Assembly (NCBI GenBank): GCA_964497325.1
Contig: CAZCCM010000001.1
Span: forward strand, 10,103 to 74,102
Length of the DNA: 64,000 bases
DNA from: an uncultured Lachnospiraceae bacterium
GTDB taxonomy: Bacteria; Bacillota; Clostridia; TANB77; CAG-508
Reading direction: 5' to 3'
Shown here: piece after piece, positions 8,279 to 55,917 of the stretch
Layout of the letters: each line of letters starts with the position of its first letter
How positions within the stretch are numbered: position 1 is the stretch's first letter
Made by a program: the position numbers and the translations under genes
Notes under the pieces: generated by a model
What the model was told of the DNA's origin: nothing
The model's input: only the letters and a program-made list of their open reading frames with translations
Databases searched by the model: none

Positions 8279-9220
8279 TTATTCTGCTATAGGTACCGGT
8301 ACACTAAATTCTGCTAAAACATCATCAGCATTATAATTATTTGATTTATCTTTTTTTATAACCCTAACTGCTGAAAATACCAACGAATTAGGTAATTCTT
8401 TTTCATCAAAAAATCTTGCAAAACTTAAGTTTAATTTTAAAGTTTGATGTCCTGATAAATCAATTTTTTCTGTATAACTTAGTTCTGGCCTTGCATCTCC
8501 ACTTACTGTTAATTGAATTTCAGGTGTTTCAGTAGTAAATTCCTTTAAAACTATATCATTTTCTGTTCTATTAGTTACAGTTACATCATATATTTCTTCA
8601 GAATAAAAAGATATTTTTTGTTTTATTTCCACTCTTATATAGTCATTTTCAAAAAAAGAATTTAATGGGATTTTCCCTATATATCCAGCTACTGATAAAT
8701 TTTTCTTTCCTGACGCACTTTCATTTATAGCCATTTTAAGATCTATAAAAGAATAATCAGAATATGTTAATCCTGTCGCTAAAAAATCTTCAAACACTTT
8801 AACTTGATATATATATGTTGACCCAACTTTTGAATATGGGATAACCTCATATCTTGAATCTTTAGGAAAATTAGTTTTTGCATATTTACTAAATTCTTCA
8901 ACATCGCCAAAGACTGTTGTTTTACAATCATCTGATAACATATTATATGCATCCTCATATTCTCCCTTACTAGATTTTTCTGCAAAATTAACTATAAGTG
9001 CTTCACTTTCTATAAAAACTTTTGAAGGAACTTTTGATTCAGGTTGTAAAACTAATGCAAAAGGATCTTTAGTTACAATAGGCTCCTCCTTTTTATATAT
9101 GCTCAAAAGATAATTGAATAATAATACTATAATAATAATTAATACCACTATAAATATTTTTAATTTATGTTTTTGAAAAAACTCACTTATTTTTATTTTT
9201 ATATTACCAGATTCTTTCAA
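8279..9220 (-). CDS. Hypothetical membrane-anchored extracytoplasmic protein (possible VirB8/TcpC-like T4SS component)
   Basis: 313 aa with an N-terminal TM (IFIVVLIIIIVLLFNYLLSIY) and a soluble domain. It is co-directional with the T4SS-like array across short gaps. The VirB8/TcpC assignment rests on architecture only. Confidence 0.35.
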   Translation of the reverse strand: MKESGNIKIKISEFFQKHKLKIFIVVLIIIIVLLFNYLLSIYKKEEPIVTKDPFALVLQPESKVPSKVFIESEALIVNFAEKSSKGEYEDAYNMLSDDCKTTVFGDVEEFSKYAKTNFPKDSRYEVIPYSKVGSTYIYQVKVFEDFLATGLTYSDYSFIDLKMAINESASGKKNLSVAGYIGKIPLNSFFENDYIRVEIKQKISFYSEEIYDVTVTNRTENDIVLKEFTTETPEIQLTVSGDARPELSYTEKIDLSGHQTLKLNLSFARFFDEKELPNSLVFSAVRVIKKDKSNNYNADDVLAEFSVPVPIAE

Positions 9221-9275
9221 AATTTCCTCCTATTTTATTCTGTATTCTATATTTTATTTTTATATTATTGTCTAC

Positions 9276-9851
9276 TTATTTTCTAGAAAAAGAAAACTTA
9301 TAATCATTTAATCCATATTCTTCAAAAATAAATTTCATTTCCGTTTTACTTCTAGAGTCTTTAATGCTTTTTATATCTATTACATAAATATACAAACTTC
9401 CTACTCTTTCAAAATTTTTAATTACATAACTTGCATCTTCAGGAAATTCTCCTTTAAAGTAATCTTCCATAACTTCTTGTTTAGGAAAAAAGTTTTCTTT
9501 AAATTTATCATCTAATCTTGCATAAATTTCACTAAATTTTTTATTTTCAATATTATCAAAAATATCACCAAGATACACTTTCATTCTTTTCATTTCACTC
9601 TTATCTTTTACTTCCTCAACAGTATCTTCAAAATCACTTTGATTAAAATTTTCTGCATATTCAGGAAGTTCAACATTAGAATTATCTAATTTTTCTTTAG
9701 TTTTTAAAGTTATAATTATAATTACAATTAGAGCTATAATAATTATAATTACAAAAGCAATTATAGTAATTTTTTCGACTGAATTTTTCTTTTTCTTTTT
9801 TTCTTTTTTTTCTTTAAAATTATCATATGTTTCTTTACTTATATTAATCAT
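9276..9851 (-). CDS. Hypothetical membrane-anchored protein
   Basis: The ORF-track start is GTG at 9857. The likelier start is ATG at 9851-9849, 5 nt after AGGAG. The N-terminus has a K-rich region then a TM (ITIIAFVIIIIIALIVIIIITL). Confidence 0.4.
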   Translation of the reverse strand: MINISKETYDNFKEKKEKKKKKNSVEKITIIAFVIIIIIALIVIIIITLKTKEKLDNSNVELPEYAENFNQSDFEDTVEEVKDKSEMKRMKVYLGDIFDNIENKKFSEIYARLDDKFKENFFPKQEVMEDYFKGEFPEDASYVIKNFERVGSLYIYVIDIKSIKDSRSKTEMKFIFEEYGLNDYKFSFSRK

Positions 9852-9900
9852 TTTCACTCCTACTTTTTTTATATGTTTTATTAAAAGCCCTACATATTAT

Positions 9901-9935
9901 ATTAATTAATTAATTATTTATTTATTTATTTATTT
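9901..9935. repeat. Simple-sequence repeats (ATTA)x3-(ATTT)x4
   Basis: 'attaattaattaattatttatttatttattt' lies in the 85-bp intergenic region upstream of the 9851 gene. Confidence 0.6.
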
Positions 9936-9936
9936 T

Positions 9937-12870
9937 TTAATTATCCGGTTTTATTGAATTGTCTTCTTTAGAATTGATATTTTCATTATTATTTTCTCCA
10001 GTATTGATATTTACTGGATTAATTTCTCCTGAGCTAATATTTTCATTATTATTTTCTCCAGTATTGATATTTCCTTGATTAATTTCTCCTGAACTAATAT
10101 TTTCATTGTTATTTCCTTCAATATTAAAATTTTCACTTGATATTCCAGGATTGTCTATATCCGGATTGTTCATTAATTCTTCCAATTTATCTTTAAACCT
10201 TTTTACTTCTTTTTCTTTTTCTTTCAATTTACCATTTTCTAAAGAAATTCTTTCCTTTTCTAAACCCTTCAACCTTTTTTCTAAATCTTCTATAATATTT
10301 GTATTTTCAGATTTTTTTGCATCTTCAAGAGCTATTTTTACTATATTATAATTATCTTTTAAATTTGTATTTTCTTTTTCTATTTTTTCTAACTCATCCT
10401 CAGCTTTTCTTAATTTATCTTTTATTTTATTAAAGTTTTCTTGAATTTTAGGATTATCTACTTTGTAATCAGTTTCGCTAGAATTTTTTCCAAATTCAGG
10501 TTTATTAAGCTTGTACTCGCCATCATTAGTGTCTTTTCCAAATTCAGGATTTTTAATCTCATCCTCTAGCCCCTTAAATAAATCATCTAAGTCTTCCATG
10601 TTATGTTGTGATTCTGGAGCAGTTCTTTCACCTTGTTGTGAGACAGGATTATTTAATGTTTTTTCATTAATATCTCCATTTTCTTCACTGTATTCTTTTA
10701 ATGCCATGGCTACTTCTGAAGTTTTTAGAACATTTTGAACATTGTCATAGTCATATGTTAACTTCTTAATATCACTTTCTAAACCATTATATTGCTCCAT
10801 ATCTTCCATTTGTTTCTTTTCCATAATCATACTTCCAAAATTTCTACCTTCTAATGTATCAAAACTCTCTCCTAACATAGTTCCTTCTTTTGGAAGTTTT
10901 CCATTCATTAAACTTTCTTCTAAACGATATGCCATTACTGTTGCTTGAGCTTTTGTTAAACTCTTATCACTCATTACTTTTTCAAGATATTTTTTTCTTG
11001 CTTGTTCATATTCTTTTAATAATTTCCCCGAATTTGATTTATCTCCAACCATTCTGAACCAGCTTTGCATTTGATCTATTCCTTCTTGAGTTTCTAACTC
11101 TGGAACCTCTCCATTTATCATTTGATTTATTCCATATGAATTAATAGCTTCTTTTGCAGCATTTTTCGTATTTAATATATATCTATCTTTTTTATTCATT
11201 TTACCATATTTTTCATTTCTTTTACGTCTAGATTCTCGTCTTTTATCAAGCATTTCTCCTACATCTTTTGATGAATTTATTAATGCATAAGAAGTTAAAG
11301 CATCACCACTAGCAATTGACCATATTGCTCCACCTACAGTAGCTACATTCCTAATTAAATTTTTTGAATATAAATTATTTAATTTATTAAATACACTTTT
11401 TGGTTTACTTGTCTCTTTTAACTCAGGTATTTCATTTATTTTTTCATCTATTACTTTTGGATCAAGTTTAATGTTTTGCGTATTTTTAGTATCTTCTACA
11501 TTTGTATCAAAACTACCCACATTCTCTGCTGTATTTATATCTAAATCATTATTTGTTTCTATATTTTGAGATGTTGGTTCTTTAAGTTTAGGTGGTAATT
11601 TTGTGCTTTCTGTACTTCTTTCAAATAAACGAGGTTTTTCTTGTTTTTCAGCACTTCTTTTTAATCTTTCAGATGTCTTATCTAACATTCTATTAACCAT
11701 TGTTGCTTTTGCTAACTGTCCACCTGCTGGTAATTTTTCACCATCTGTTATATTAAATATTTGTCTAATTATTTTTTCACCTTCACCAATGAATCCTAAA
11801 CTCATAATAGCTATAATTGTACCAGGAATTGTAGAAGTGAATGTACCAAAAATGAAGTCTCCTCCTTCACCAACATCTACTGATATTTTAAAAGCAAGTG
11901 TAAAAAATACCGAAAAAATTAAAGCATGAAAGGTTTGTATAAAAACATTAAATATAAAGACATGCATCCAGGTATTTAATGCTTGCGATTTGTTATCTGC
12001 AATTTTATCTATTGAGTAAGTTATTGTAATTAAAGGTGAAATCATAATTAAAAATGCAATTTTAATCATTCTTTTTATATATATAAAAGTATATTTAAAT
12101 GTTTGTATTGTAATAGTTGCTAATATTATAGCAGATGAAAGTTGTCTAATAATATTTAAAGGTGTTAAAATATAACCCATCAGTTTTAAAATAGTAGCAG
12201 CAAAATCCATTCCATCTAAATTTGCCATAGATGCTTTTTCAATAATTCTAACTAAAATATTATTTCCAGTTATAGATGCTACAATTATTATACCTAATAA
12301 AGCAAGCAAAGCTAATGAAATCAACCAATTTACAAACATTTTATAATATTTAGCTCTTGATTGACCTGTGCTTGCTATTACTGCTCTAATAGAAATGTAT
12401 ATTAAAACGCCTAATAAAATTACTACAGAAATTCCTGATAAAGTTACAAACCATTTAGCAATTGCTGTTCTTAATGATAAGATATCTGATCCTCCTGTTG
12501 AAAAATCAAAAAAATCTATACTTAATATAGGTATTCTATTATAAAAAATATCTGCTGGTGTAACTATAAAACTTGTATTTCCAAGCAACTTAAATAATAA
12601 AGATAATATTAAGTAAGGAACAACAACAAATAATAGCCCTCCTATTGCTACAGGAATCCATAAGAATATTCCTAACAATCCATTTAACATTCCCATTATG
12701 ATGTCACCAGCTGTCTTTTGTACTCCTGAATTGTTTTCTAATTCAACCTCTGAATCTGATGCAAAACTACTATTATATGTCCCTACTAATGTTAAAATAA
12801 ACAAAAACATTATTATTATTTTTAATATTTTTTTTAAATTATATTTAAATAAATTTTTCTTTTTACTCAT
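9937..12870 (-). CDS. VirB6/TrbL-like polytopic T4SS membrane protein, paralog 1, with a long hydrophilic C-terminal tail
   Basis: 977 aa with a signal/TM, more than 8 TM helices, and the conserved motif 'ISPLITITYSIDKIADNKSQALNTWMHVFIFNVFIQTFHALIF' shared with the three neighbouring paralogs. The C-terminal ~550 aa is a charged coiled-coil ending in 20-aa repeats. Confidence 0.55.
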   Translation of the reverse strand: MSKKKNLFKYNLKKILKIIIMFLFILTLVGTYNSSFASDSEVELENNSGVQKTAGDIIMGMLNGLLGIFLWIPVAIGGLLFVVVPYLILSLLFKLLGNTSFIVTPADIFYNRIPILSIDFFDFSTGGSDILSLRTAIAKWFVTLSGISVVILLGVLIYISIRAVIASTGQSRAKYYKMFVNWLISLALLALLGIIIVASITGNNILVRIIEKASMANLDGMDFAATILKLMGYILTPLNIIRQLSSAIILATITIQTFKYTFIYIKRMIKIAFLIMISPLITITYSIDKIADNKSQALNTWMHVFIFNVFIQTFHALIFSVFFTLAFKISVDVGEGGDFIFGTFTSTIPGTIIAIMSLGFIGEGEKIIRQIFNITDGEKLPAGGQLAKATMVNRMLDKTSERLKRSAEKQEKPRLFERSTESTKLPPKLKEPTSQNIETNNDLDINTAENVGSFDTNVEDTKNTQNIKLDPKVIDEKINEIPELKETSKPKSVFNKLNNLYSKNLIRNVATVGGAIWSIASGDALTSYALINSSKDVGEMLDKRRESRRKRNEKYGKMNKKDRYILNTKNAAKEAINSYGINQMINGEVPELETQEGIDQMQSWFRMVGDKSNSGKLLKEYEQARKKYLEKVMSDKSLTKAQATVMAYRLEESLMNGKLPKEGTMLGESFDTLEGRNFGSMIMEKKQMEDMEQYNGLESDIKKLTYDYDNVQNVLKTSEVAMALKEYSEENGDINEKTLNNPVSQQGERTAPESQHNMEDLDDLFKGLEDEIKNPEFGKDTNDGEYKLNKPEFGKNSSETDYKVDNPKIQENFNKIKDKLRKAEDELEKIEKENTNLKDNYNIVKIALEDAKKSENTNIIEDLEKRLKGLEKERISLENGKLKEKEKEVKRFKDKLEELMNNPDIDNPGISSENFNIEGNNNENISSGEINQGNINTGENNNENISSGEINPVNINTGENNNENINSKEDNSIKPDN
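9974..10150. repeat. In-frame 60-bp tandem repeat x~3 in the 3' end of the 9937-12870 gene
   Basis: The 60-nt unit ('tttcattattattttctccagtattgatattt...') occurs at 9981, 10041 and 10101. It encodes 'GENNNENISSGEINxxNINT' x2.5. Confidence 0.7.
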
Positions 12871-12968
12871 TTCTTACCTTTATCTCTATTATTCTTACTT
12901 TTATCTTCATTTTTTTGTAACTTATTATATCTTATATCTTTTTTTATTAAGATTAAACTATAAATACA

Positions 12969-15182
12969 TTATAATTTTCTAGATCTTTTAACTACTTCTT
13001 TATATCTTATCTTTTCCCCAGCAACAGTAGTATTCTTTTCAAAATCGTCTATTTTATCTTTAGTAATTAAATCTAAATATTTATGCATTAAAGTCCTATC
13101 TATATCTGATAAAACATCATAATCAAAATCTCTTTTATTTAAAATATCATTTTGTAATTTTGCTACATGTTCCTTAGCTTCAAACTCAGACTTTCCGGTT
13201 TTTGTTTGAAATTCTGCAATAGCTTCCTTTTTTGTGTTTTTATAAGATGCTTCAAGTTTTTCTCTTGAAGTAGATCCAATGGTACTGGCATATTCTTCAA
13301 GAAAATCTGTTTTAAATTCTTGTTGAAAAGCTACATTTTGATTATCTAATTCTTCTGCAGAAGTCTTTTCTTCTTTTTCTGAAGAATTACTACTTACTTC
13401 TTCTCCTAATTTATCTTTTCTTGTTCTAATAGCTTTAAATTGCTCAGCTTCATTATTTAAGTTTTTTTCATATACAGATTTTGAATATGGAGTACATCCT
13501 TTTTTATGTTTCATTTTATTTCTTTTAGTTTCTACATTCTTTATGGCCCAATCAGCTCCTTTATATCCCATAGTTCCAGCTTCTACCATTCCAACTTGTG
13601 GTGTAGCATGTGAAGCAGTCGCAGTAATCCCTGCAACAGTTGTCTTTAATGCTGTTTTACCTATTTTTTTACCCATTCTCTTAAATGTTTGCTTATTTAA
13701 GTTTTTAGCTTTAGTAATTGTATACTCTTTCATTGATGTTCCTAACCCCTTAAGTGGTCTTTTGTCATAGATTTTTTCAAGATTTTCTCTTCTTTTTGCT
13801 TGCTTCTTTTCTTTTTCCAATATGTCTTTTTCTGTAAGTTTTTTCTTACCTTCTTTTTGTTTATCTTCCTCTTTTTTATCTTTTTCTTTATCCTTAATTT
13901 TATCTTTAAGATCTTCTTTTGAACTATCTAATATTTTATTGTCTTTTTTATTTATATTTTCTGATGTTTGTGTTTTTAAAGGAATCTTCTTTTTACTCTC
14001 AGCTTTATCTATTGTTTTTAAAATTGGTGCTTTTTTAACAAAATTACTTCCAACTTTTTTAAACTTATTTGCTTGGCTAAGCATTCCTAATAATAAAGCC
14101 GTATTTCCTTGAACTTTATCTGCGGATATTCCAAATAATGAACCAATTATTGTTTCAGAATCCCATAAAAATTTAAGTCCAGAAACCAATAATATCATTG
14201 CAGGAATAGCAGCTGTTCCCTTTGAACCTGCTGCTTCTACTATAATAGATATAAAAGATACATATGTTAAAGCATGAATTACTTGTATTAAAACTGTATA
14301 AACAAACATTTTTGACCAAGCAAGTAAACTTTTTGCACTACCAGATCTTCTATTAACAGCATAGGTAACTGCAACTAAAGGAGAAATTACTATTAAAAAT
14401 GAAACCTTTAGAAGCCTTTTAAAATAGTATAGAAAGAAAACTAAGCCCATGGCTGAAATTATTATATACAAAATTAAAGATTGAGTTCCAATAAGAACAT
14501 TAGTATTAAAAATACCTTTCCATAATTCCATTGTTAATGAATCATCCCATGCACCTGCAACCGCTTCTTTATAAAAAGCTGAAACAATAGTATTATTTAA
14601 TAAAATAATAGCTATTATAAAAATCCCCATTCCAAAAAGAACTAATAATCCTAAAAGATAATCCTTTATCATCTTTTTTGTTTCCGCTTCCTTCTTAGGG
14701 TCTTGTTTTAAAGTTCTTAAAACTGAATTTATTGCAATATATATAAGCACTAATATTTCTACGACTATTGCTACTCCAAATAAAATGACAAACCATTTGG
14801 CAACATTTTCATATAATGCATTTGCTGTAGCATCAACTTTTGATCCAGTAAAAACATTTAGACTTGTTAACTCATATTGATTAAAAATAAATGTTTCAAT
14901 AGTTATAGCTGCAGCCTGTCCTCCAATTAAAAGTCCTATTATAAATGAAATTGTTATAAGAACAAGTGCTATAATAGCCCTAAGCAACATTAGAATAATA
15001 GATATAAATCCTGGTAATTCAACTTTATCATCATCAGATGCAAAAACGCTAGAAGAATAACCTATAACAAGAATACTTATTGCTAGCATTATAAACATAA
15101 TTTTCAAAATTGTTTTTTGTCTTTTCTTTATAATTTTATTTCCTCCTAACTCTTTTATGTTATTATTTTTCTTTTTCTCCAA
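12969..15182 (-). CDS. VirB6/TrbL-like polytopic T4SS membrane protein, paralog 2, with a K/E-rich C-terminal tail
   Basis: 737 aa with the shared motifs 'VAKWFVILFGVAIVV' and 'ISPLVAVTYAVNRRSGSAKSLLAWSKMFVYTVLIQVIHALTY'. The annotated start is a TTG overlapping the upstream gene by 20 nt, so the true start is uncertain (the first in-frame ATG lies inside the signal-peptide region). Confidence 0.55.
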   Translation of the reverse strand: MEKKKNNNIKELGGNKIIKKRQKTILKIMFIMLAISILVIGYSSSVFASDDDKVELPGFISIILMLLRAIIALVLITISFIIGLLIGGQAAAITIETFIFNQYELTSLNVFTGSKVDATANALYENVAKWFVILFGVAIVVEILVLIYIAINSVLRTLKQDPKKEAETKKMIKDYLLGLLVLFGMGIFIIAIILLNNTIVSAFYKEAVAGAWDDSLTMELWKGIFNTNVLIGTQSLILYIIISAMGLVFFLYYFKRLLKVSFLIVISPLVAVTYAVNRRSGSAKSLLAWSKMFVYTVLIQVIHALTYVSFISIIVEAAGSKGTAAIPAMILLVSGLKFLWDSETIIGSLFGISADKVQGNTALLLGMLSQANKFKKVGSNFVKKAPILKTIDKAESKKKIPLKTQTSENINKKDNKILDSSKEDLKDKIKDKEKDKKEEDKQKEGKKKLTEKDILEKEKKQAKRRENLEKIYDKRPLKGLGTSMKEYTITKAKNLNKQTFKRMGKKIGKTALKTTVAGITATASHATPQVGMVEAGTMGYKGADWAIKNVETKRNKMKHKKGCTPYSKSVYEKNLNNEAEQFKAIRTRKDKLGEEVSSNSSEKEEKTSAEELDNQNVAFQQEFKTDFLEEYASTIGSTSREKLEASYKNTKKEAIAEFQTKTGKSEFEAKEHVAKLQNDILNKRDFDYDVLSDIDRTLMHKYLDLITKDKIDDFEKNTTVAGEKIRYKEVVKRSRKL

Positions 15183-18100
15183 GATTCTTTACTTGCGGAT
15201 TTTCTTCTAATTGCTTCTTTTCTGCTTTTGCTCTATTATCTGTTTTCTTATTTTTAGACTGTGATTTATTATTATTTTTGTTTTCTTTTTGTGATTTATT
15301 ATTATTTTTGTTTTCTTTTTGTGATTTATTATTTGTTTGTTTGTTTTCTTTTTCCGATTTATTATTTGTTTGTTTATTTTCTTTTTTCGATTTATTATTT
15401 GTTTGTTTATTTTCTTTTTCTGTTTTATTATTAATTTGTTTATTTTCTGTCTTAGCTCTGTCGTTTGTTTTCTTGTTTTTAGGCTGTGAGCTTTTGTTTC
15501 TTTTGTTTTCTGTGTTTTTTTGAAAATTTTTAATTGTTTTTTTATTTTCTTTATTTATTTTTATTTCTACTTTATCATTTACTACATTAGCTTGAACAAA
15601 ATGTGGTTTACCTTTTTTTCGTTGAAAAGCTTTACTATTAAACTGGAAGTTTCCTAATAATCCATAATAAAGACTTTTTGGTATTGAAGAATCCACCAAA
15701 GCTATTGGGAAAAACAATATTCCTGCAGTAGCTTTTAAGCCTGTTTTTCCTAATTTTTTAAAATCTTCAATTGTTTTTTTATATTCTTCTTTTCCCTTTT
15801 CTCCTTTACCCATTTTGAATTCTTTAATTACAGATTTTTTAAATTTATCATAGTTACCTTCTGTTAGTTTAATCTTTTTCTCATCAAAATCAAAATAATA
15901 TTCTCTGCCTTCTATTCTACGTCTACCCTTATCATCAACAGTCCCCATATTCTTTACAACTCTTTTAAATCTATTTGAAGTATATTGTGCTTTTCTAACC
16001 CCTTTAACTATTTTATTAGTTTTAATCATTTTTGATCTTTCTAATAATCTAATTCTATCTTTTTCTTCTTCTGTTAAAGGAAGATTTCCAGAAGGATCCA
16101 TTCTATCTTTAATTTCCTCATCTGAATAGCCTTTTAGTTTTAAGACTTCTTCTATTTGTTTATTTCTTTTCTTTTGTCTATTAATCTCCCCCATGGTTTC
16201 TGCAGGAAGTCCTGCCTCAACACGTTTTTTTCTTATTTTTTCTTCCATGCTTTCTTTTAAATTATATGCTCCTCTAAATGCTGTTGCACCAACTGTCCCT
16301 GCTACTGCTTTGATTGGTTTTATTACTGCAGATGAAACCTTTTTTATTGCTCCTCCTTCTAGATTCTTTTTATTAAATAACGAACCCACTGCTAAACCTG
16401 TAGCATAATCTTTTAATGTTGATTTTTCTAAAACATTATCTAGAGTACTATGTCTCTTAGCTCCTCTAACATTAAATATCTGTCTTATTATTTTATCTGC
16501 TTCTAATATAAACTTTAATAAAATAAACATTATAATAAATCCTACTATACTTTTAGATGCTAATGCATATGTTATTGGAATAAAAATTAAATAAACAAAA
16601 GCATGAATAGATTGTATTAAAATATTAAATGTATATTCTTTAATCCACTCTATTCTAACATTAGATTTGCCTTTTAAAGTTTTTATAATTAAATCATATA
16701 TCATTAAAAGTGGGCCTAATAGAGAAAGGAAAAACACTACTAAAAATCTTTTTATGTACATAAGAACAAACTTCAACGTATACCAAATTAAAACAATATA
16801 CATTATTGTAGCTGGTATACCAACCGTTAATTTCAAATTATAAGCTCTTGTTCTTAAAGTTTCCAATATAGTATAATTTCTACCCATATCTGTTTCAATC
16901 AATGATCCTCCCACTGATTCAGCAGCTGTATCTGCAAATTTTGATAATAAATCTATAATAGTTGTATTTGCTTGTAAAATAACTATCATATATATCAATA
17001 TAAGTAGCATTTCTACAAAAGCTTTTGCCCAACTTATTGCTCTTTCTTTATATGTAGCTTTTTTCATACCAACAGATTCAATCACTGCCATAATAGCATT
17101 AATTATTAATGCCATTAACAATAATAATAATCCTAAACCGTATAGTGTTATAAAAATTGAAGCAAAATAATCTTTTATAATTAACAAAGGTCCATCTTCT
17201 AATTCAATTTCTTCTTCATAATCCTCACCATATAGTTCTTCCATCTCTAATCCTGTTGGACTATATTTTAAAAGTCTTTTTCTTACAGAATCCTTACTTT
17301 CAAAAAAGTTTACGTTTAAAGCTTCTACCCTATTAAATATTATGTTTTCTATGTTTACAGTTCTTTTTGAATCAGTATAAAATGCAGCATTATTTTTTCT
17401 ATAACTTCCTGAACCCACATTTTTTACTGTCAATGAATCAAAAGCTTCTGATAATAAAACTTCAGCTAATATTCCAAAACCTAAAACTCCTAATTTAAAT
17501 ACGGAAGCAGCTAATCCTAATAAATAATCAGTAATTTCAAACAAAAATTTAACAATCCACTTAAAAAAATTAGTTTTACCTTTCGCAGAATGTCCTGCTG
17601 AAACTCCTTTATAAAAAAAATCTCCTGATGATGACATTTTTTTAAAATCTGATAAAAGCATATTACTTTTTGTAGATGAGCTGGAACTAGCTAATCCTGT
17701 TGATATTCCTGGAGTAGTAACATCAACATAATCTAAAGGATTAACAGCTTTTCCATTATTTTGAATTTCAAAATGAAGATGTGGACCAGTTGAAAGTGTT
17801 CCCGTTCCACCTACATAGCCTACTATTTGTCCAATTTCAACTTTGTCTCCTACTTTTAAGTCTGACGGTCTCATCATATGTACAACCAACCAACTATATC
17901 CATCTTCTCTTTGAACTTTAAGCATATTTCCACTTTCTATACTCGCTGCTGAATAGACAACTGTCCCTGAAGAAGCAGCTAAAATAGGTGTTCCTTCTGA
18001 AGCACCTAAATCAACTCCTGTATGAAAATCAGAATAAGGACTTCCATTAAGGATAAAAGATCTAGGTCCAAATCCTGAAGTTATTGGTTTAGGCACTTCC

Positions 18101-18357
18101 AAAGGATTTGCCCAAGCAGTACTACTTGCTTTGCTCGAACTGTTTTTGTCTTTACTGTTTTCTTTATCTTTATTATTTTCTTTCTCTTTATTATCTGATT
18201 CTTCTGTTTCTTCTTCATTATTAAAAACATTTTCATTAAAATATTCACTAAAAGCTAAAGATTCTATAGGATACATAAGTAATATAATTACTAATAAAAC
18301 AAATGCTATTAGCTTAATTCCGATTTCTATTAAATTTTGCTTAACTTTTATCTTCAT
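15163..18357 (-). CDS. Fusion protein: N-terminal secreted M23 (LytM-type) metallopeptidase domain, then a VirB6-like polytopic membrane domain and a repetitive K/N-rich C-terminal tail
   Basis: 1064 aa. The M23 signature is 'FHTGVDLGASEGTPILAASSGTVVY...GPHLHFEIQ'. Downstream motifs 'ALNVNFFESKDS' and 'GPLLMIYDLIIKTLKGKSNVRIEWIKEYTFNILIQSIHAFVY' are shared with the VirB6-like paralogs. Confidence 0.65.
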   Translation of the reverse strand: MKIKVKQNLIEIGIKLIAFVLLVIILLMYPIESLAFSEYFNENVFNNEEETEESDNKEKENNKDKENSKDKNSSSKASSTAWANPLEVPKPITSGFGPRSFILNGSPYSDFHTGVDLGASEGTPILAASSGTVVYSAASIESGNMLKVQREDGYSWLVVHMMRPSDLKVGDKVEIGQIVGYVGGTGTLSTGPHLHFEIQNNGKAVNPLDYVDVTTPGISTGLASSSSSTKSNMLLSDFKKMSSSGDFFYKGVSAGHSAKGKTNFFKWIVKFLFEITDYLLGLAASVFKLGVLGFGILAEVLLSEAFDSLTVKNVGSGSYRKNNAAFYTDSKRTVNIENIIFNRVEALNVNFFESKDSVRKRLLKYSPTGLEMEELYGEDYEEEIELEDGPLLIIKDYFASIFITLYGLGLLLLLMALIINAIMAVIESVGMKKATYKERAISWAKAFVEMLLILIYMIVILQANTTIIDLLSKFADTAAESVGGSLIETDMGRNYTILETLRTRAYNLKLTVGIPATIMYIVLIWYTLKFVLMYIKRFLVVFFLSLLGPLLMIYDLIIKTLKGKSNVRIEWIKEYTFNILIQSIHAFVYLIFIPITYALASKSIVGFIIMFILLKFILEADKIIRQIFNVRGAKRHSTLDNVLEKSTLKDYATGLAVGSLFNKKNLEGGAIKKVSSAVIKPIKAVAGTVGATAFRGAYNLKESMEEKIRKKRVEAGLPAETMGEINRQKKRNKQIEEVLKLKGYSDEEIKDRMDPSGNLPLTEEEKDRIRLLERSKMIKTNKIVKGVRKAQYTSNRFKRVVKNMGTVDDKGRRRIEGREYYFDFDEKKIKLTEGNYDKFKKSVIKEFKMGKGEKGKEEYKKTIEDFKKLGKTGLKATAGILFFPIALVDSSIPKSLYYGLLGNFQFNSKAFQRKKGKPHFVQANVVNDKVEIKINKENKKTIKNFQKNTENKRNKSSQPKNKKTNDRAKTENKQINNKTEKENKQTNNKSKKENKQTNNKSEKENKQTNNKSQKENKNNNKSQKENKNNNKSQSKNKKTDNRAKAEKKQLEENPQVKNLGEKEK
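15230..15470. repeat. In-frame degenerate 30-36 bp tandem repeats x~7 in the 3' tail of the M23/VirB6-like gene
   Basis: Units 'gtgatttattattatttttgttttcttttt' at 15261-15290 and 15291-15320 are identical, and degenerate copies follow to about 15430. They encode 'KENKQTNNKS(x)' repeats. Confidence 0.75.
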
Positions 18358-18397
18358 ATTTAAAATTTTTTCTTTATATAATATAAAGTCTTCCTTT

Positions 18398-19696
18398 TTA
18401 TATTACTTTAATTTTTACATCATCAAAATATAAAAAACCATCTTTTATATATTTTAATTCTAAGTTGCCTTCTCCTATATATACATCTACAACAGAACCT
18501 GTATTAATATTAATTTTAAAGATTCCTTCATCAGCTATAGAATAAAATACATATTCTTTAGTTAATAAAAGATTATCTGCAACTTTTGCTGTATTTATAT
18601 TAAAATTTTTATTTCCTATCTTAGAAACAATAGAAACATCACTAAAAGTATAATTTGTAGAATTTAAATTAAAATATACAGTATATTTGTCCATTTTTTC
18701 TAACACTTTATATTCTTTTTCTTCTTCTCTCGCTTTCTTTAAATAGCTTTCCTCAACATTAATATTTTTATAGATATCATTATCACTATATATTTTTTCA
18801 GGCCATGAAAAATTTAATTTTAATTGTTCTTCTGCAATTCTTTCAATTTCTTCTTTCATAACTAAATTAGTATTCTTATAATTTACATTTTTAAACTTTT
18901 TTAAATTATCTACAGAAAATTCCTTGTTTTCATTATAATAATTTGAATAAAGATAAATACCATTTTCATTGTCATATTCTTTAAAATATAACCTTATTCC
19001 TAAATCTGCATAAATTAACTCTAATCCATCGCTATCATAAGAATATTTTGTATAAGATGGGTATACCATTGTAGTATTAGAAATAAATTTTTTTAAATCA
19101 CCAGATTGCAAATATATTTTATAATATTGCCAAAAAACCTCTAAATCTTCATTATTTCTTAAATATGCAGAAGCTTGATGGTTTTTAGTATCAAAAATTA
19201 TATAATAATCTTTAGTTTTATAAGCTAATAAATTATTTTCATTATAATTAGGACTACCTAAATTCATTATAATACTGTCACTATCAGTTTGAACATTTAT
19301 GCCTTTTATTATGTTAGACTTATATTCATCAAAAAATACCACATTTATTATTCTATCAAAAGATTTTTTTATTTTTATTTGTCTTTGTGGAAAAACATAA
19401 AAGCCATCATAAATATAATATTCTCCAAAACTTTTTAATTCCATTTTAGGATTTTTTATAATATTTAATAATTCTACAGAAGCAACTGATAAATTTATTT
19501 CCCTCTCATTTATAGTTACATATGACTCAATTTTTGTATCAGTACTTTCTGTTTTTCCTTGATCTCCCCAAGGGATATTTGTATCTTCTTGAATTTTTGG
19601 CTTTGCAGAAAATAATGAAAAGAGTACATATATAATAAATACCCCTGCAATTACAATAAAAAATATAAACTTCTTTTTATTTTTTAAATCAAACAT
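18398..19696 (-). CDS. Hypothetical secreted/membrane-anchored protein in the T4SS-like array
   Basis: 432 aa with an N-terminal hydrophobic segment (FIFFIVIAGVFIIYVLFSLFSA). Its start overlaps the upstream stop (TAATG). Confidence 0.4.
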   Translation of the reverse strand: MFDLKNKKKFIFFIVIAGVFIIYVLFSLFSAKPKIQEDTNIPWGDQGKTESTDTKIESYVTINEREINLSVASVELLNIIKNPKMELKSFGEYYIYDGFYVFPQRQIKIKKSFDRIINVVFFDEYKSNIIKGINVQTDSDSIIMNLGSPNYNENNLLAYKTKDYYIIFDTKNHQASAYLRNNEDLEVFWQYYKIYLQSGDLKKFISNTTMVYPSYTKYSYDSDGLELIYADLGIRLYFKEYDNENGIYLYSNYYNENKEFSVDNLKKFKNVNYKNTNLVMKEEIERIAEEQLKLNFSWPEKIYSDNDIYKNINVEESYLKKAREEEKEYKVLEKMDKYTVYFNLNSTNYTFSDVSIVSKIGNKNFNINTAKVADNLLLTKEYVFYSIADEGIFKININTGSVVDVYIGEGNLELKYIKDGFLYFDDVKIKVI

Positions 19697-43152: not shown

Positions 43153-46100
43153 TTATTTATTATTTTCGTCTTCATTTGGTAAAACTCTATTTTTTTGTAT
43201 AGCATTCATTAACACTTTTATTAACACTGTAACTCCCGCTATTCCTATCATTATAATTAGCATTGTATTTAAAGTTAATCTTAATGTTTTTTGAGACTTA
43301 CTTAAACCTGTAGGAGGTGTTATAGTTACTAACATTGCTAAACCTGTATCTGGTTCTAAGTTTTCAGCATCAAATGTTTCTGATAATCTAGTATTAATAT
43401 TTCCTGGAGTTGAAGATGTAGATCTTCTTCCATTATCTGTTGAATATTCTACTATTTCAGCTATATTATCAAAACTTAGGTCTTCATCTGCTTGTTGTGA
43501 TGATAATCTCTTAGTTGCTATCTTTGAACTTATTTGATATGGTGAAATCTTTTCTTTGTCAGTTCCTCGTGCTATTGCTGTAGCGTATTCATAATACGGT
43601 ACTAATCCTTCATTCATCTTCTCATTCATGTATATATTTGAGCCTCCAGTTTTAAAGTATGACTTTCCGTCTGGATCTGATATTAAGCTTGTTTCTAGTT
43701 TATAAGTTTTATTGCCTGAATCATCATATACAGCGATCAAAGAATCTAGTTCTTCAATATTTTTAATTTGTGCCCATCCTTCGTCAGTTTGTAAATCATC
43801 TTTAACTGCACTGTTGTCTACATAATCTAATACTTTATTTACATATGTTTTAGAAACTGTTTCCTCATATAGTTTATAATCTCCTATCTTAGAAGTTTCT
43901 GTATAATCTCCTGTGTAATATCCTTTTCCAAAGAATCTACCAAATCCATATTTATCTGGATCTATTTCATGATTTAACTTTGAATATTTTTCTCCTGATC
44001 CTGCTATTGTACCAACGTATTTAGAAACTTTATCATCTTTTCTAGCATCTTCTATTGATTGTGTTTTAAAGTTTTCCTGTATTGTTGCTCTATCTACTTC
44101 TCCAAGATTGTATGCTCTAACCTCATATTCCATTTCAATATTCATATCTGATAATAATTGTTTATCAAAATTTAAATGTATATATCCATTTGATTTTCTT
44201 ATTGCAGGGTCTTCTATATTAATATTTTCCCATCCTCTTGCATTTGTATATATACCACTTTCTGATTTATTTTCTTCCCAATATGGTTTTTTAGTTGCAT
44301 ATATAATTGTATTTAATGGATTTACTTTATCTCCATTTACAGAATCTGCTTTAATTTCTGTCTTAACTTTTAAAATATATTCACCTATATTGTATCCATT
44401 TTGAGTTTTTCTTTTAGTATCATATTTTTTATCTTCTTTTTCTGCTTTTAATACATTTTTATCTTCATTTGGTATTACTATGTTTTCAGCATCATAAGTT
44501 GTTTCATATTCAGCATCAACTAACTTTGTACCTTCTGAACTTTTTAATGTTAATTTTGTAATTTGTTTATCTAAAACTATTTTTGTTTTTGGTCTTTCTT
44601 CTAAAGCAATATTTACATTATTGTATGTGTGAGCTTCATTTGGTACTTCTACATCTTTCTTTCCATCATTACTTTTAGTAATTCCTGGTAATGCAAAGAC
44701 ATCTGCAAATTTATTATATAATATATTTTCTTTAGATACAGATCCGTAGTAATTTATTCCAAAGTTAATTACTGGTGTTTCTGCCGTCATATTAGCAGTT
44801 GATTCTATAACTTTTCTTGTTTCATCATCAAACTTATCATGTCCTATATTTAAAATTTCTAATCCACCGCCAATTTTTGCATTTATATTTTTTGAATTTT
44901 GATATAGCTTGTATCTGCTGTATTCACTATCTCTTCCATAAGAGTAATTTTCTTTTGGAGTTGATGGAAGCCATGTTTCATTTAAAGTCTCTTTATTTCC
45001 ACCATCATATATTGAAACTTTAAAATCTTGACCATTATATACTTGTGGTGATTTATCTCTATTTTCTATATCTACTATTTTAGTTGTTTCGATTGTATCT
45101 TTATTAAGTATTCCTATAGATTCTGTAATATCATTTCCTGATATTATATATGGTAATTGTACAACAAAGTTTCCTGCTGGAATATTTTTAAACTTGTATT
45201 TTCCATCTTCACCCGTTCTCATATATGATTGAAATCCAATTAAGTCTCTTAAACTACTAATTTTAATTCCTGTACCTTCAATCTTATTTTCCCATACATA
45301 TGGAATATCTACATAATTAGTTTCATCTTTCAATACTTTATTATCAAAACCTTGCTCCATTTTATATTCAGTACTTAAATCAACCGCTCTAATAGAAACC
45401 CTTTCTTCTAAAGCAACTATCTTATTTGGTATTGGTTTTTCTTCATCTTTATTATATATACCATCACCCATATTTACTCTAGCAATCTGATTGTTTCTTT
45501 TTTCTTCCCAAACCATACCTGAAACTTCTCTTGGTGCTTCTGTTTCTAATTTAATAGTTATCATTGGAGCAACTGAAGAATCATCTTCTAAGTATGAAAA
45601 GTCTTGTTTTATATTTCCATCAAATCCAGCTTTTGTAAAGTTTAATCGGCCTAAATTAATATTTGCTGGTGCAGAATCTCTGTCTACTTTTCCTGTTACT
45701 TTTCCTGTGTATTTATTATATGTTGCATATCCTGCAATTTCTGTTAAGTGATGTTTATTTCCTAATCTAATAGAATTTTCTACTTTATCACCATTTTCTG
45801 CAAAAAGCTTGCCTTTATTAACTTTAAAGTTAGTTACTACTTCTAACCTTCTAGCTGAAGGTAATATAATATCCATATCACCATACTTATCATCTAAAGT
45901 AGTTAACATTCCAATTCCTTTATTTGTTTCTTTTTTTGTCCATATAAATGGTTCAGATTTAGTTAGCCCTGGAATTTTTTCATATTCAGTTTCTGCTTTA
46001 ACATCATCAAAGTTTCTTTTAATATTTGTATCTAAAGTTACAATTCTATATTCTGGTGTTCCTATAACCACATTACTTCCCGATATTGCAGCTTTACCTG

Positions 46101-49100
46101 TACCATTTTTATCTTCAATTTCTTCTTTGTCTATTTCCTTTTCTATCTTTTCTAATACTGGAGTTAATGTCTCGTCATAATACATATTTAAGCCTGAAAC
46201 AATAGCAGAATCAACTTGAGAATAGTTTGTTATTGCTTGTTTATATTGTAAATATACATCTAATTCTCTTCCTTCTTGATCTTTATTTTTTTCTGCTAAT
46301 CTTTTTGCCTCAGTATCTAATGCTTCTTTTATATCAGGGTCTTTATACATTGCTGTTCTATAAATATAATCTGCTTTATATATCTCTAATTGATATTGTA
46401 AGTCACCATAGTTTTCTGAATATTTACTAATCAAGTGACTGTATCCATCATTCTCATCTTTCTTTAAATCGTACTTATTTGCAAAAGTGTTTATTAAAGC
46501 TTTTTTATTTATAAATTGTATTGATAACATTAAATCACTTTCTAATTCTAAATCAACTTTTCTTCTTTTGAATAATCCTAAGTTGATGTTTTCCATATGG
46601 GTATTTGATTCATGAAATACTACCACAGATTTATTATCTAATGCATCTGTTACAGTAACTCCTTCTTTATTTTTATATTCTTCTGCTTTTTCTTTAGTCA
46701 TTATTATTACTAAATCAAAATTACCATTTGTTTCAGAGGTTGCATTTTTATTTGACATAGCTTGTTCCATGTCTATTTCATATACATCTCCTAATGGATA
46801 TAGTATACCTGTGTTTAATGTAGAAGCTCTCGTATTTCTTTTAGTTTCAAGAGTTGAAACCGTTCTATTTTTATCATTAACTTTCCCTTCATAATTTAAT
46901 TCATAATCATTTTCAGGTGCTTTTTCAACTCCAATAGCTTTTCCTACAGTTTTTCTATTTTCATCCATTTCTGATGAACCATTTATTTCACCCATATTCA
47001 TATTAAATGTATCTCTTGCTTTAGTATTTTCAACAGCCATAGAGTCATTTACCGCTTTTCCTGCATTTTCAAGATTATAATTATCTGGATTATATGAAAG
47101 ACTTGCTAAAGCTGGTACTGGTACATACTCTATACCATCATATTCAAATTCTACTTCAAACTTTACAGAATGTGTTTTTGAACCATATCCTTTTTTTATT
47201 TCTTTTCTAGTAAATCCTAAGTCTCTTAAATAATATTTACCCCATTCTCCTTTATCATTTGTTTTAATTTTTTCTGTTATTGGAGCATTATACTTACCTT
47301 TTTCAAATACTCTTGCTGCTTGTTTTTCTACTATACTTTGATCACTATTTTTTATAATTAATCTATTTACCCTAACTGTTATATCTTCAAACATTCTATC
47401 TTTTTTATCTTCGTTTCCTGTGTTTAATATAAAGTTATATGAAGATAATTTGTCTCCATAAGGATTATCTTCCCATACTTTACCACCTATTGGTAGTACA
47501 AAGGCTGGTGCATTTTTATAAACGTCAGGGTTATCAGGAATTTTCTTGTTTTCTATTAATTTTGCTGTTGTATCAACATATTTTAATCTACCTTTAACTT
47601 TCATTTGTGGCTGTGTTTTTTCTAACGATAACATTGCTTTAGGTACAACTAAAACATCTGGAGTTTTAAATAATACATGTCTGTATCCTTCATTAAGCGT
47701 TGGAATTGATATATCAGAATTTACTTTTGCAGATGTTGGCATATTTTTTAATGCTAAATCAGGATCTATCTTTGCTTTATTTGTTTTTCCAATTTCAACT
47801 GTATTTGTAACTTCTGCAATTTTTGTTTCTTGAGGTATACTTTCATTCCTTTTATTCTTAAATAGGCCTAATATTTTATCTGTAAAATTAGGATTCTGTT
47901 TTTTTTCTACTTTTCCAAGATCTTTAAGAGTTATCTTTTTAGTTTGACCTCCGCGAGTTCTAAAAATAGCTACTAAAACGTTTCTATGAACACCATGACC
48001 TGTTGAATAACTACCTCCATTCATTGAAGTTTCAATATTTGTTGAAAACATAAACACATTATTCTTTATCTGAAGAAATGTTACTTCTAAAGGAGGTTCT
48101 TTTGCAGGGATATCTATATAATCAGTTTGTCCTCCCTTTGTTATAAAATACATTCTGAAAGAAGTATATTCCTTAGGTATTGAATATACTTGATTATAAT
48201 AATAAGTATAATTACCAGAGCTACAATTTATATTTGACATAAAACTATATGTGTCATTATTCTCAGAATATTTTATAACATTAAATGATTCCGAAGGAAA
48301 CATATCTTGATAACTTTTATCTAAATACATAAGATCTTTATATGGTTTTGAAAAAGACCTAAAATTTATTTCCTTTGATCCACCATTTATTGAAGTTCCT
48401 TCAGCAGTTATTCCATCATAACTATAAAGAAAACCTCTAGCAGGAGTGAAGCTACTTGATTTTTCATTCCATTTTATTGTTTTATAAAGAGTATTTCCCT
48501 CTCTTGTCCAACCATCTAGTATATGCATTTCAGAAGGCTTATATGGTGAAAAATCTAATGTTAATGTCCCAACATCATCACCTGGTGTAATATCAAATTT
48601 AACCTTCGGTTTCTGTACATCCAAATAAGCATTAGAGTACTTTTCAAACTTTTCAATTTCAATATCTGCTTCAAAATCTATATATTCTCCAATACCAGCA
48701 TAATAATTAGCACTTGCCTCATAATCTACAGCTCTAAATGAAGCTGTAAGTTCTGCTATTCTTATTAAGTTTTCATCAAATGGTATTTCTATATAAAACT
48801 CTTGATTTGGCTCTGGAACACCATATTTTAAACTTGTTACTTCCCCCTTTGCAATCTGTTCTGCAGTTAAATTAGTTCCTTTGGCTTGTAATGGTACAAA
48901 GTATGACCATTTTAGTATTTCTTTAATAGTAGTCTTAGATTTATCATTATATTCTCCAGTAATTTTCATATTAGTCATACCTGCAAAATATTTTTCTGAG
49001 TTACCATTTTTTACTGTACTTAGTAGATAATCTAATTTGTATGGACCAACTAGCCAAGATCCTTCTTTATATTTTTCTGATTTAGAATTAAATATAATGT

Positions 49101-50421: not shown

Positions 50422-50422
50422 A

Positions 50423-55501: not shown

Positions 55502-55917
55502 TTGAACCTCCATTCAATTTTCTTTAATGTAATATTAATTTTTGCATAACCAATTATTTATATCAAACCGCTTTTTACTATATATATATTAAAAACATTT
55601 TTTTATAATTTTAAAACCATTCTTTTCTTTAATAAATATGCTTTACAAGGCTTGCAGGTAATTTATGTAACATTTTAACAACATTTTTTTTAATATTTTA
55701 AAAATTTCAGCTTAAATATACAATTTTATTTTTTTATTTTTTTTAATAGTTTTTATTTTTTTTGTTTTTTTTATAATTTTATTTTGTTTGATATTTTTCA
55801 GCTTTATATTTTTATATTTTTATTTTTTTATTTTTTTTAAATATTTTTTTATAAAAAAATAAAGAACAAGTTTTATTTTTAAATTATTCTAAATACCCTT
55901 AAATCAATAATTTAAAC

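Follow-up and report, generated by a model that had tools for sequence, protein, structure and literature searches.

In-frame tandem repeats at the 3' ends of two VirB6-like genes in a secretion-like gene cluster of gut Clostridia, and their variation between near-identical assemblies

Contig CAZCCM010000001.1, from an uncultured Lachnospiraceae bacterium, carries a cluster of genes resembling a type IV secretion system (T4SS), in which two genes for VirB6-like membrane proteins, of 977 and 1064 amino acids (aa), end in short tandem repeats. The whole stretch that was analysed, 64 kb long, is called the window below. A first-pass annotation of the window had proposed that these repeats are prone to slipped-strand changes of copy number and give the proteins tails of variable length. 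Are the arrays genuine, do they vary between strains, and does the variation serve a purpose?

Two arrays at the extreme 3' ends of VirB6-like genes

The repeats were delimited with Tandem Repeats Finder (TRF), and the elements needed at this point are the following.

9897..9944, intergenic: (TAAA)n/(TAAT)n microsatellite, directly 3' of the stop codon of the 977-aa gene (TRF)
9937..12870, minus strand: VirB6-like paralogue 4 (977 aa), carrying array 1
9977..10132, minus strand: array 1, a 60-nt (20-aa) in-frame tandem repeat, 2.6 copies (TRF)
15163..18357, minus strand: VirB6-like paralogue 2 (1064 aa), with an N-terminal peptidase M23 fusion, carrying array 2
15234..15470, core 15262-15448, minus strand: array 2, a 33/30-nt (11/10-aa) in-frame tandem repeat, about six units (TRF)

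For array 1, TRF returned a period of 60 with 2.6 copies, 90% matches and a score of 249; an alternative parse had a period of 30, with 5.4 copies and 69% matches. The 20-aa unit, GENNNENISSGEINxxNINT, occupies residues ~919-966 of the 977-aa protein. On the minus strand, the array reads GNNNENISSGEINQGNINTG / ENNNENISSGEINPVNINTG / ENNNENINS..., and the stop codon of the open reading frame (ORF) lies 37 nt past its end. The longest exact self-match is 36 nt (offset 60).

Array 2 consists of four 33-nt units followed by two 30-nt units, which encode KQINNKTEKEN, KQTNNKSKKEN, KQTNNKSEKEN, KQTNNKSQKEN, KNNNKSQKEN and KNNNKSQSKN (consensus KQTNNKSxKEN and KNNNKSQKEN, residues ~973-1036 of the 1064-aa protein). 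Its core had a TRF score of 241 at a period of 33, with 5.8 copies and 91% matches. Degenerate flanks extend the array to 15234-15470, and a diverged outer repeat, SQPKNKKTNDRAKTENKQ ... SQSKNKKTDNRAKAEKKQ, flanks it on both sides. The longest exact self-match is 44 nt (offset 30), and the stop codon is found ~85 nt past the end of the array. Differences among the array units are mostly non-synonymous.

A codon-shuffle test was applied to both tails. The observed TRF score was 249 for the tail with array 1, where the shuffle maximum was 95, and 245 for the tail with array 2, where it was 120; in neither case did any of 300 shuffles reach the observed score. The arrays are therefore not a by-product of the 25% GC composition. 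We conclude that both are real, in frame and about 90% self-identical, and that they stand at the very 3' ends of two genes on the minus strand.

The first-pass annotation had placed a 60-bp unit, repeated about three times, at 9974-10150, and a 30-36-bp unit, repeated about seven times, at 15230-15470. Both arrays were recovered, with copy numbers corrected to 2.6 (at 9977-10132) and to about six. The repeats had been called perfect or near-perfect, and at ~90% identity only the second term applies. The encoded peptides, described as N/E/K-rich, are indeed K/N/E/Q-rich in array 2 (28% K), but those of array 1 are N/I/E/S/G-rich and nearly devoid of K. Two VirB6-like genes do carry these arrays, as had been seen, but the locus holds four VirB6-like paralogues, and smaller in-frame arrays occur elsewhere in it too.

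Variation between near-identical assemblies

The exact proteins were present in three SPAdes metagenome assemblies of one study, which were compared: ERZ4239753 (that of the window), ERZ4239754 and ERZ4239965. The three long contigs (L001 to L003) were 99.7 to 99.8% identical over 22.9 kb. This alignment contained three genuine indels, one in each array and one in the adjacent (TAAA)n tract; the repeat tracts make up less than 2% of the compared sequence, yet contain all three. A fourth indel, which adjoins a 10-N scaffold gap, was dismissed as an artefact.

In L001, a 42-bp in-frame deletion within array 1 (~10077-10118) removed GNNNENISSGEINQ and was joined at a 9-bp direct repeat, AAGGAAATA. 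In L002, the (TAAA)n tract after the stop codon of the 977-aa gene was 28 bp longer. Array 2 of the same contig read through the first unit directly into a SEKEN-type unit and then into a 100-N scaffold gap, which gives five units if the contig ends overlap, and at least seven if the gap is real. Since the SEKEN-type unit directly follows the first one, this array cannot have the six-unit order of the window. Its first unit was moreover homogenised, KQINNKT having become KQTNNKT. Identical array copies were found in independent assemblies, for array 2 in L001 and L003, and for array 1 in L002 and L003.

The comparison of copy number across strains, which the first-pass annotation had put forward as a check, thus shows that the arrays differ between strains, the exact count of array 2 in L002 being either five or at least seven. 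The length-variable tails that had been anticipated are also seen: genuine indels among the three assemblies are confined to the arrays and the microsatellite, and a homologue described below has one to ten units.

Point mutations in L002 were unevenly distributed as well. Among its 39 single-nucleotide polymorphisms (SNPs) across the 22.9 kb, 20 fell within 15048-15949, a 902-bp interval in the tail of the 1064-aa gene, and 12 within 15715-15949. This clustering suggests that a diverged strain contributed the tract by recombination, or that the region is locally hypervariable.

Arrays that are real but stable could also give rise to such differences, if these were artefacts of short-read assembly at repeats, which are classic sites of misassembly. 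Coverage was only ~4.6-6.4x, and a 100-N gap lies inside array 2 of L002. The flanking genes were present in about a dozen Logan assemblies, in which the contigs (k=31) all broke at the first repeated k-mer of either array; they did confirm both flanks and, for array 1, the long allele. The arrays thereby interrupt short-read assemblies at both points. On the other side, the array 1 deletion is joined at a microhomology of 9 bp, less than the length of any k-mer that an assembler uses, so that a collapse of the de Bruijn graph is an unlikely cause; the second array 2 unit of L002 differs in type from that of the window, and it stands on the sequenced side of the gap. Finally, the homologue mentioned above has distinct length alleles, each seen on as many as 27 independent contigs. 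We consider an origin of all these differences in assembly very improbable.

Further copies of the locus were sought elsewhere. JGI metagenome contigs were scanned for two exact patterns, taken from a flank of array 2 and from part of the gene that separates the arrays, and neither gave a match. The 90% protein clusters of the two array proteins had only three and two members, so that the protein database offers no further local variants.

Tails and repeats across the family

A pattern scan of the GTDB species-representative genomes gave 218 relatives of the VirB6-like proteins that were confirmed by tblastn, and 79 related loci were kept for comparisons at the level of the family. In the nearest orthologous cluster (L005, VirB4 84% identical), intact orthologues of all four paralogues were present, with neither array, and their tails ended in unrelated sequence. 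Identity between core and tail regions was 71 versus 44%, 76 versus 56%, and 59 versus 44%. With tblastn, the cores matched all 79 loci; the tails were undetected beyond L005 (and L004 for some segments). As the arrays are absent from L005 and the tails cannot be detected beyond these two loci, the arrays are young, lineage-specific additions to fast-evolving tails.

Repeats are nonetheless a recurrent property of the tails. In-frame tandem repeats were found in 37 of 90 tails across the related loci, with unrelated units (for example GGTPPN, GSGGSG and QNQSNQNGQ). They made up 4.8% of the bases in tails, compared to 0.4% in cores and 2.0% in other long ORFs, and were concentrated just after the core and at the C-terminus. 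The period was divisible by three for 82 of 90 tail repeats.

A homologue in another species gives a view of such an array in a larger sample. Forty-odd near-identical proteins differ mainly in the number of C-terminal xPQQP units (1 to 10), so that their lengths step by 5 aa (683, 688, 693, 698, 703, 708, 713...), and a single length allele may be found on as many as 27 independent contigs. In one frequent allele (P0067, P0072-P0078, P0088), the terminal PEPQQ repeat DNA is read in another frame (PEHATTRTTTTR...AANTTA...), and the protein is back in the original frame for the terminal KKQARRKSKKK; this allele was found on up to 27 contigs. Compensating frameshifts must therefore flank the array, and the reading of the array in a second frame argues that its peptide is weakly constrained.

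The absence of conservation bears directly on the idea that the arrays are functional modules, whether as lysine-rich stretches binding nucleic or teichoic acid, as a length 'ruler' or spacer of the secretion apparatus, or as a T4SS docking site. Array 2 is extremely basic (28% K), array 1 follows a confidently predicted helical segment of ~95 residues, like a stalk with a tip, and extended VirB6-type proteins, such as TraG of the F plasmid, employ their C-terminal parts in mating-pair stabilisation and entry exclusion (PMC4027160; PMC7648143). However, neither array is present in the nearest orthologues, whose cores are 71-76% identical. The units of one gene bear no relation to those of the other or to units elsewhere in the family, and most differences between units are non-synonymous. 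We regard a specific function of this kind as improbable.

A probable origin by slippage or recombination

The arrays are probably young, weakly constrained in-frame minisatellites that change by slippage or recombination and form a tolerated, flexible appendage of the tail. Units would be gained, lost and homogenised through replication slippage, or through unequal or microhomology-mediated recombination between units, with slipped-strand mispairing as the presumed mechanism. The sequences added in this way, after the conserved part of each tail, would be hydrophilic and probably disordered C-terminal extensions. Their peptide being under little constraint, they would most likely be tolerated as a flexible spacer or appendage. 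The mutational mechanism, the weakness of selection and the lack of a specific function are what we infer here; the arrays and their differences are observed.

In-gene changes of repeat number by slippage or recombination, leading to polymorphism of protein length, are also what characterises coding-region variable numbers of tandem repeats (VNTRs) and simple-sequence contingency loci in surface proteins of bacteria. The arrays fit the description of a coding-region VNTR, that is, an in-frame repeat whose length differs among close genomes. They differ from phase-variable contingency loci, in which a reading frame or a promoter spacing is switched, in that every unit (60, 33 and 30 nt), like the 42-bp deletion, has a length divisible by three. 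The outcome is thus polymorphism in the length and sequence of the tail, and not on/off switching of expression. In 9000-16000, promoter-like and terminator-like matches did not rise above the level expected from shuffles, which gives no sign of a regulatory role for the arrays, and an Rfam scan of 9000-27000 found no RNA family.

Several points weigh against this reading of the arrays as minisatellites. The evidence for local variation comes from three short-read SPAdes assemblies of low coverage (4.6-6.4x), and the Logan contigs, all of which end at the arrays, yield no copy numbers. The array 1 variant was present in one assembly only (4.6x), and it is a 42-bp microhomology deletion, not a step of a whole unit; the array 2 variant, of five or at least seven units, sits at a scaffold gap. 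Neutrality, moreover, is deduced from a lack of conservation, and the arrays may instead have a selected, surface-exposed role. Taken as minisatellites, the arrays are an ordinary coding-region tandem-repeat polymorphism in a new, unannotated protein family, and handy strain markers.

Structure of the tails and side of the membrane

A selected role would depend on where the tails end. Across the four tandem paralogues, the VirB6-like tails are 360-640 aa long. The 977-aa protein is laid out as a signal or anchor, a polytopic helical core (~1-372), a long low-confidence tail, a helical segment (807-901) and a disordered repeat terminus. In the AlphaFold model of the full-length protein, the core was confident, with long helices over residues 53-371, and the tail mostly of low confidence, apart from the coiled-coil-like segment 807-901, whose predicted local distance difference test (pLDDT) score was ~90. 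Residues 907-977, which include array 1, had a pLDDT of ~30 and no secondary structure. In the 1064-aa protein, the last 124 residues are 5% hydrophobic and 52% K+N. Given the low pLDDT of array 1 and this composition of the other tail, both arrays are most likely disordered termini. One conserved part of the tails, rich in Gly and Ala, may form an additional membrane segment.

The tails are basic, with 112 K+R for 57 D+E in the 1064-aa protein and 92 for 65 in the 737-aa paralogue that lies between the arrays. By the positive-inside rule, such strongly basic tails favour the cytoplasmic side of the membrane. The C-terminus of canonical VirB6 is cytoplasmic. On the other hand, the 1064-aa protein must have its M23 domain outside the cell, and if helices are naively counted from there, the tail of that protein could lie outside as well, so that the hints from hydropathy and from charge conflict.

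If the C-termini were exposed, the tails might be adaptive hypervariable surface structures, in which repeat changes are selected for escape from host antibodies or phages or for recognition of a partner. The parallel of the gene layout with that of Rickettsiales (VirB4, four tandem VirB6-like genes, multiple VirB2-like pilins) would agree with this, as would the clustering of SNPs in the tail of the 1064-aa gene, the independent rise of repeats across the family, and the crude helix count. In Anaplasma, virB6-4 varies between strains by 3' tandem repeats, the C-termini of VirB6-3 and VirB6-4 are reported to be surface exposed, and these repeat-bearing termini have been proposed as adaptive surface variation (PMC7648143). 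In the present case, the charge of the 1064- and 737-aa tails and the canonical topology both point to the cytoplasm, and the arrays are short. The homologue that tolerates its array in a different frame fits a lack of constraint at least as well. We therefore hold selection for surface variation to be unlikely, and prefer the weakly constrained minisatellites described above.

Comparison with known systems

Among known systems, the array-bearing proteins are by analogy closest to the extended VirB6 paralogues of Anaplasmataceae (virB6-3 and virB6-4 of Anaplasma phagocytophilum). Several virB6-type genes stand in tandem directly after virB4 in both cases, and each organism also has several VirB2-like pilin paralogues. 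Tandem paralogues, hydrophilic C-terminal extensions and strain-variable 3' repeats, the marks of an extended VirB6, are all found here; descent from the rvh system is not. As no TrbL/VirB6 Pfam domain was detected, the resemblance is one of fold and convergence, not of close descent. The differences are also considerable. Anaplasma is a diderm alphaproteobacterium, whereas the window comes from a monoderm relative of Clostridia. The arrays measure ~160-190 bp here and kilobases in virB6-4, whose proteins have 4,322-9,935 aa. One paralogue carries a fused M23 peptidase here, and surface exposure is reported only for Anaplasma. An origin in Rickettsiales was rejected: the relatives of the family are metagenome-assembled genomes (MAGs) labelled Clostridia, the window has Bacillota-type housekeeping genes, and a TrbL domain is missing.

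The structurally characterised VirB6 protein of R388, TrwI (PDB 7o3v, 8rtd, 8rt9), shares only 11-13% identity with the window proteins, with no match at the sequence level to PDB or Pfam. It lacks a long repeat-bearing tail, and the window proteins are two to four times longer.

Patescibacteria possess a relaxase-less chromosomal MPF-FATA-like T4SS that uses PF18895/PF04956 pilins (PMC12102498). The cluster of the window is similar in its VirB4, its polytopic membrane proteins, its VirB2-like pilins of the same two families, its chromosomal location, and the lack of a nearby relaxase or coupling protein (PMC12102498). A likeness to the minimal T4SS of mycoplasma integrative and conjugative elements (ICEs) consists of weak NCBIfam matches to Mbov_0395, Mbov_0396 and Mbov_0397, all of which fall far short of the curated cut-offs; nothing on Mbov_0396 turned up in a literature search. 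The relatives of the cluster are, by contrast, labelled Clostridia and not Patescibacteria or Mollicutes, and four VirB6-like paralogues together with an M23 fusion are not described in the available parts of the sources on those systems.

VirB6-like identity and distribution of the family

Profile searches did not identify the paralogues. A Pfam scan of all of them gave no TrbL/VirB6 (PF04610) match at E<=0.01, and only sub-threshold T4SS_pilin matches; NCBIfam gave only matches below cut-off to the Mbov_0396 ICE transmembrane protein (E 0.005 and 0.0009). A search with a family profile against the sequences of PDB chains found nothing meaningful (best E-value 0.47). In the Foldseek comparison with PDB, however, TrwI/VirB6 chains headed the list, with weak E-values. 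A hydropathy scan found at least six hydrophobic segments in each paralogue, as in a polytopic membrane protein, and the genes stand next to VirB4 in a T4SS-like cluster whose module order recurs in related loci. Fold and context (a VirB4-like ATPase, and TrbC/T4SS_pilin genes) thus bear out the VirB6-like identity proposed at the outset, which sequence does not. The predicted structures and the gene order support proteins that are VirB6-like by fold and context, and that fail the sequence-profile test.

A word-indexed search of 5.8 billion proteins gave 59 relatives at ~35% identity, none of them named and none with a Pfam domain. Nearly all of the 79 loci came from MAGs labelled Clostridia, Clostridium sp. 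(CAG:354, CAG:793, UMGS...), Lachnospiraceae or Candidatus Scatovivens; the exceptions were one each labelled Erysipelotrichales, Saccharibacteria and 'uncultured bacterium'. The recurring module consists of VirB4, VirB6-like genes interspersed with a 432-aa gene, a 193-aa gene and a 313-aa gene, with one to three VirB6-like paralogues within 8 kb. Conservation of this module extends over dozens of MAG species labelled Clostridia, with a VirB4 identity of 66-84%. The core gave no tblastn match in PLSDB plasmids or INPHARED phages, and a plasmid or phage origin of the family was rejected on this ground.

This context is more useful than the repeats themselves. It reveals a widespread, unannotated family of VirB6-fold membrane proteins of uncultured gut Clostridia, with several paralogues per T4SS-like cluster and tails evolving much faster than the cores.

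The gene cluster around the arrays

Besides the two array-bearing genes, the cluster contains the following elements.

8279..9857, minus strand: two conserved accessory genes (193 aa, 313 aa), downstream of the VirB6-like genes; tblastn relatives in 62/79 and 67/79 related loci, in the same order
12969..15182, minus strand: VirB6-like paralogue 3 (737 aa from a TTG start), between the two arrays (ORF, TRF)
13838-13908, minus strand: small arrays in the linker of the 737-aa protein, with K/D/E-rich periodicities of 6-19 nt (TRF)
18145-18194, minus strand: small array, 18-nt unit, 2.8 copies (DNKEKENNKDKENSKDKN), in the 1064-aa protein between its signal anchor and M23 domain (TRF)
18398..19696, minus strand: conserved accessory protein (432 aa), no Pfam or NCBIfam match; tblastn relatives in 47/79 related loci
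19696..20929, minus strand: VirB6-like paralogue 1, a split gene (238-aa and 188/224-aa ORFs)
20922..22874, minus strand: VirB4-like T4SS ATPase (650 aa), Pfam P-loop_TraG, DUF87, AAA_10
22890..24074, minus strand: TraC-like protein (394 aa), precomputed Pfam PF26593
25190..26478, plus strand: three tandem VirB2-like pilin paralogues (126, 123, 124 aa; ORFs), TrbC PF04956 (weak), T4SS_pilin PF18895

The four VirB6-like genes lie directly downstream of the VirB4-like ATPase and share the signature YIKRMxxIAFLIxIxPLITITYSIDK. Paralogue 1 is split by a 1-nt insertion, a single extra C (TTGCGGAGTAATG) near 20372-20376, and its orthologues are unbroken in L005 (421 aa) and L004 (402 aa). The same split occurs in every ENA and Logan assembly of the strain, and it therefore reflects a real pseudogene or split gene and not a sequencing error. 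For paralogue 3, gene callers place the start at the ATG at 15098, which gives 709 aa, and the exact 709-aa product was found on 11 contigs. This protein has a K/D/E-rich low-complexity linker, and it is the one with the NCBIfam match to Mbov_0396 at E 0.005.

In paralogue 2, the M23 domain covers residues 111-207 (Pfam Peptidase_M23, 1.9e-26, with NCBIfam endopeptidase matches), and the metal-binding motifs HxxxD and HxH are present. The domain would supply the cell-wall hydrolase activity that is usual in T4SSs of monoderms. In the orthologue of this fusion in L005 (2833-5671), the two motifs are unrecognisable in the aligned region, and the peptidase may be inactive there.

The VirB4-like ATPase matched the NCBIfam models of CD1110-family VirB4 (1.6e-58) and Mbov_0397 VirB4 (2.6e-56), both under the curated cut-offs, and the TraC-like protein matched positions 103-304, in the N-terminal part, of the VirB4 model for mycoplasma ICEs (NCBIfam VirB4_plasma, E 5e-6). 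The TraC-like gene and the three pilin genes lie upstream of the ATPase, and the pilin genes are divergently transcribed from the VirB4/VirB6 operon. Their assignment comes from precomputed Pfam matches to these genes in sister contigs. The T4SSs of Anaplasma and Patescibacteria likewise have several copies of VirB2.

The ORFs scanned in the 64-kb window included none of the genes expected of a conjugative element, namely a relaxase, a coupling protein (T4CP), and integrase or replication genes. On one side the cluster borders on MscL/SpoU/Mfd, and on the other on a DnaJ-like gene, PBP2B and MscS. Rather than an ICE, it may represent a chromosomal T4SS that has been domesticated. There is a slim chance that it is a relaxase-less, chromosomally fixed T4SS-like machine, comparable to that of Patescibacteria and shared by many gut Clostridia of low GC and small genome, which serves for interaction between cells or with the host and not for conjugation, and whose VirB6-like paralogues expose hypervariable, repeat-driven tails that determine specificity for a partner or host or allow evasion, in an independently evolved monoderm counterpart of the Rickettsiales VirB6 expansion. 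If the tails were indeed surface exposed, the family would be a candidate determinant of specificity or immune evasion in a poorly known gut lineage. The T4SS-like cluster of gut Clostridia is in this respect a more interesting lead than the arrays.

The window, a segment of a bacterial chromosome, also encodes NrdD, a Mur ligase, MgsA, PBP2, MreC/MreD, RadC and a PASTA-domain penicillin-binding protein, the last of these and other genes being of Bacillota type. Two adjacent giant ORFs occupy 43153-50442 (2429 aa, no Pfam match) and 50423-55513 (1696 aa, SdrD_B domain) on the minus strand; their products are possibly surface or adhesin-like.

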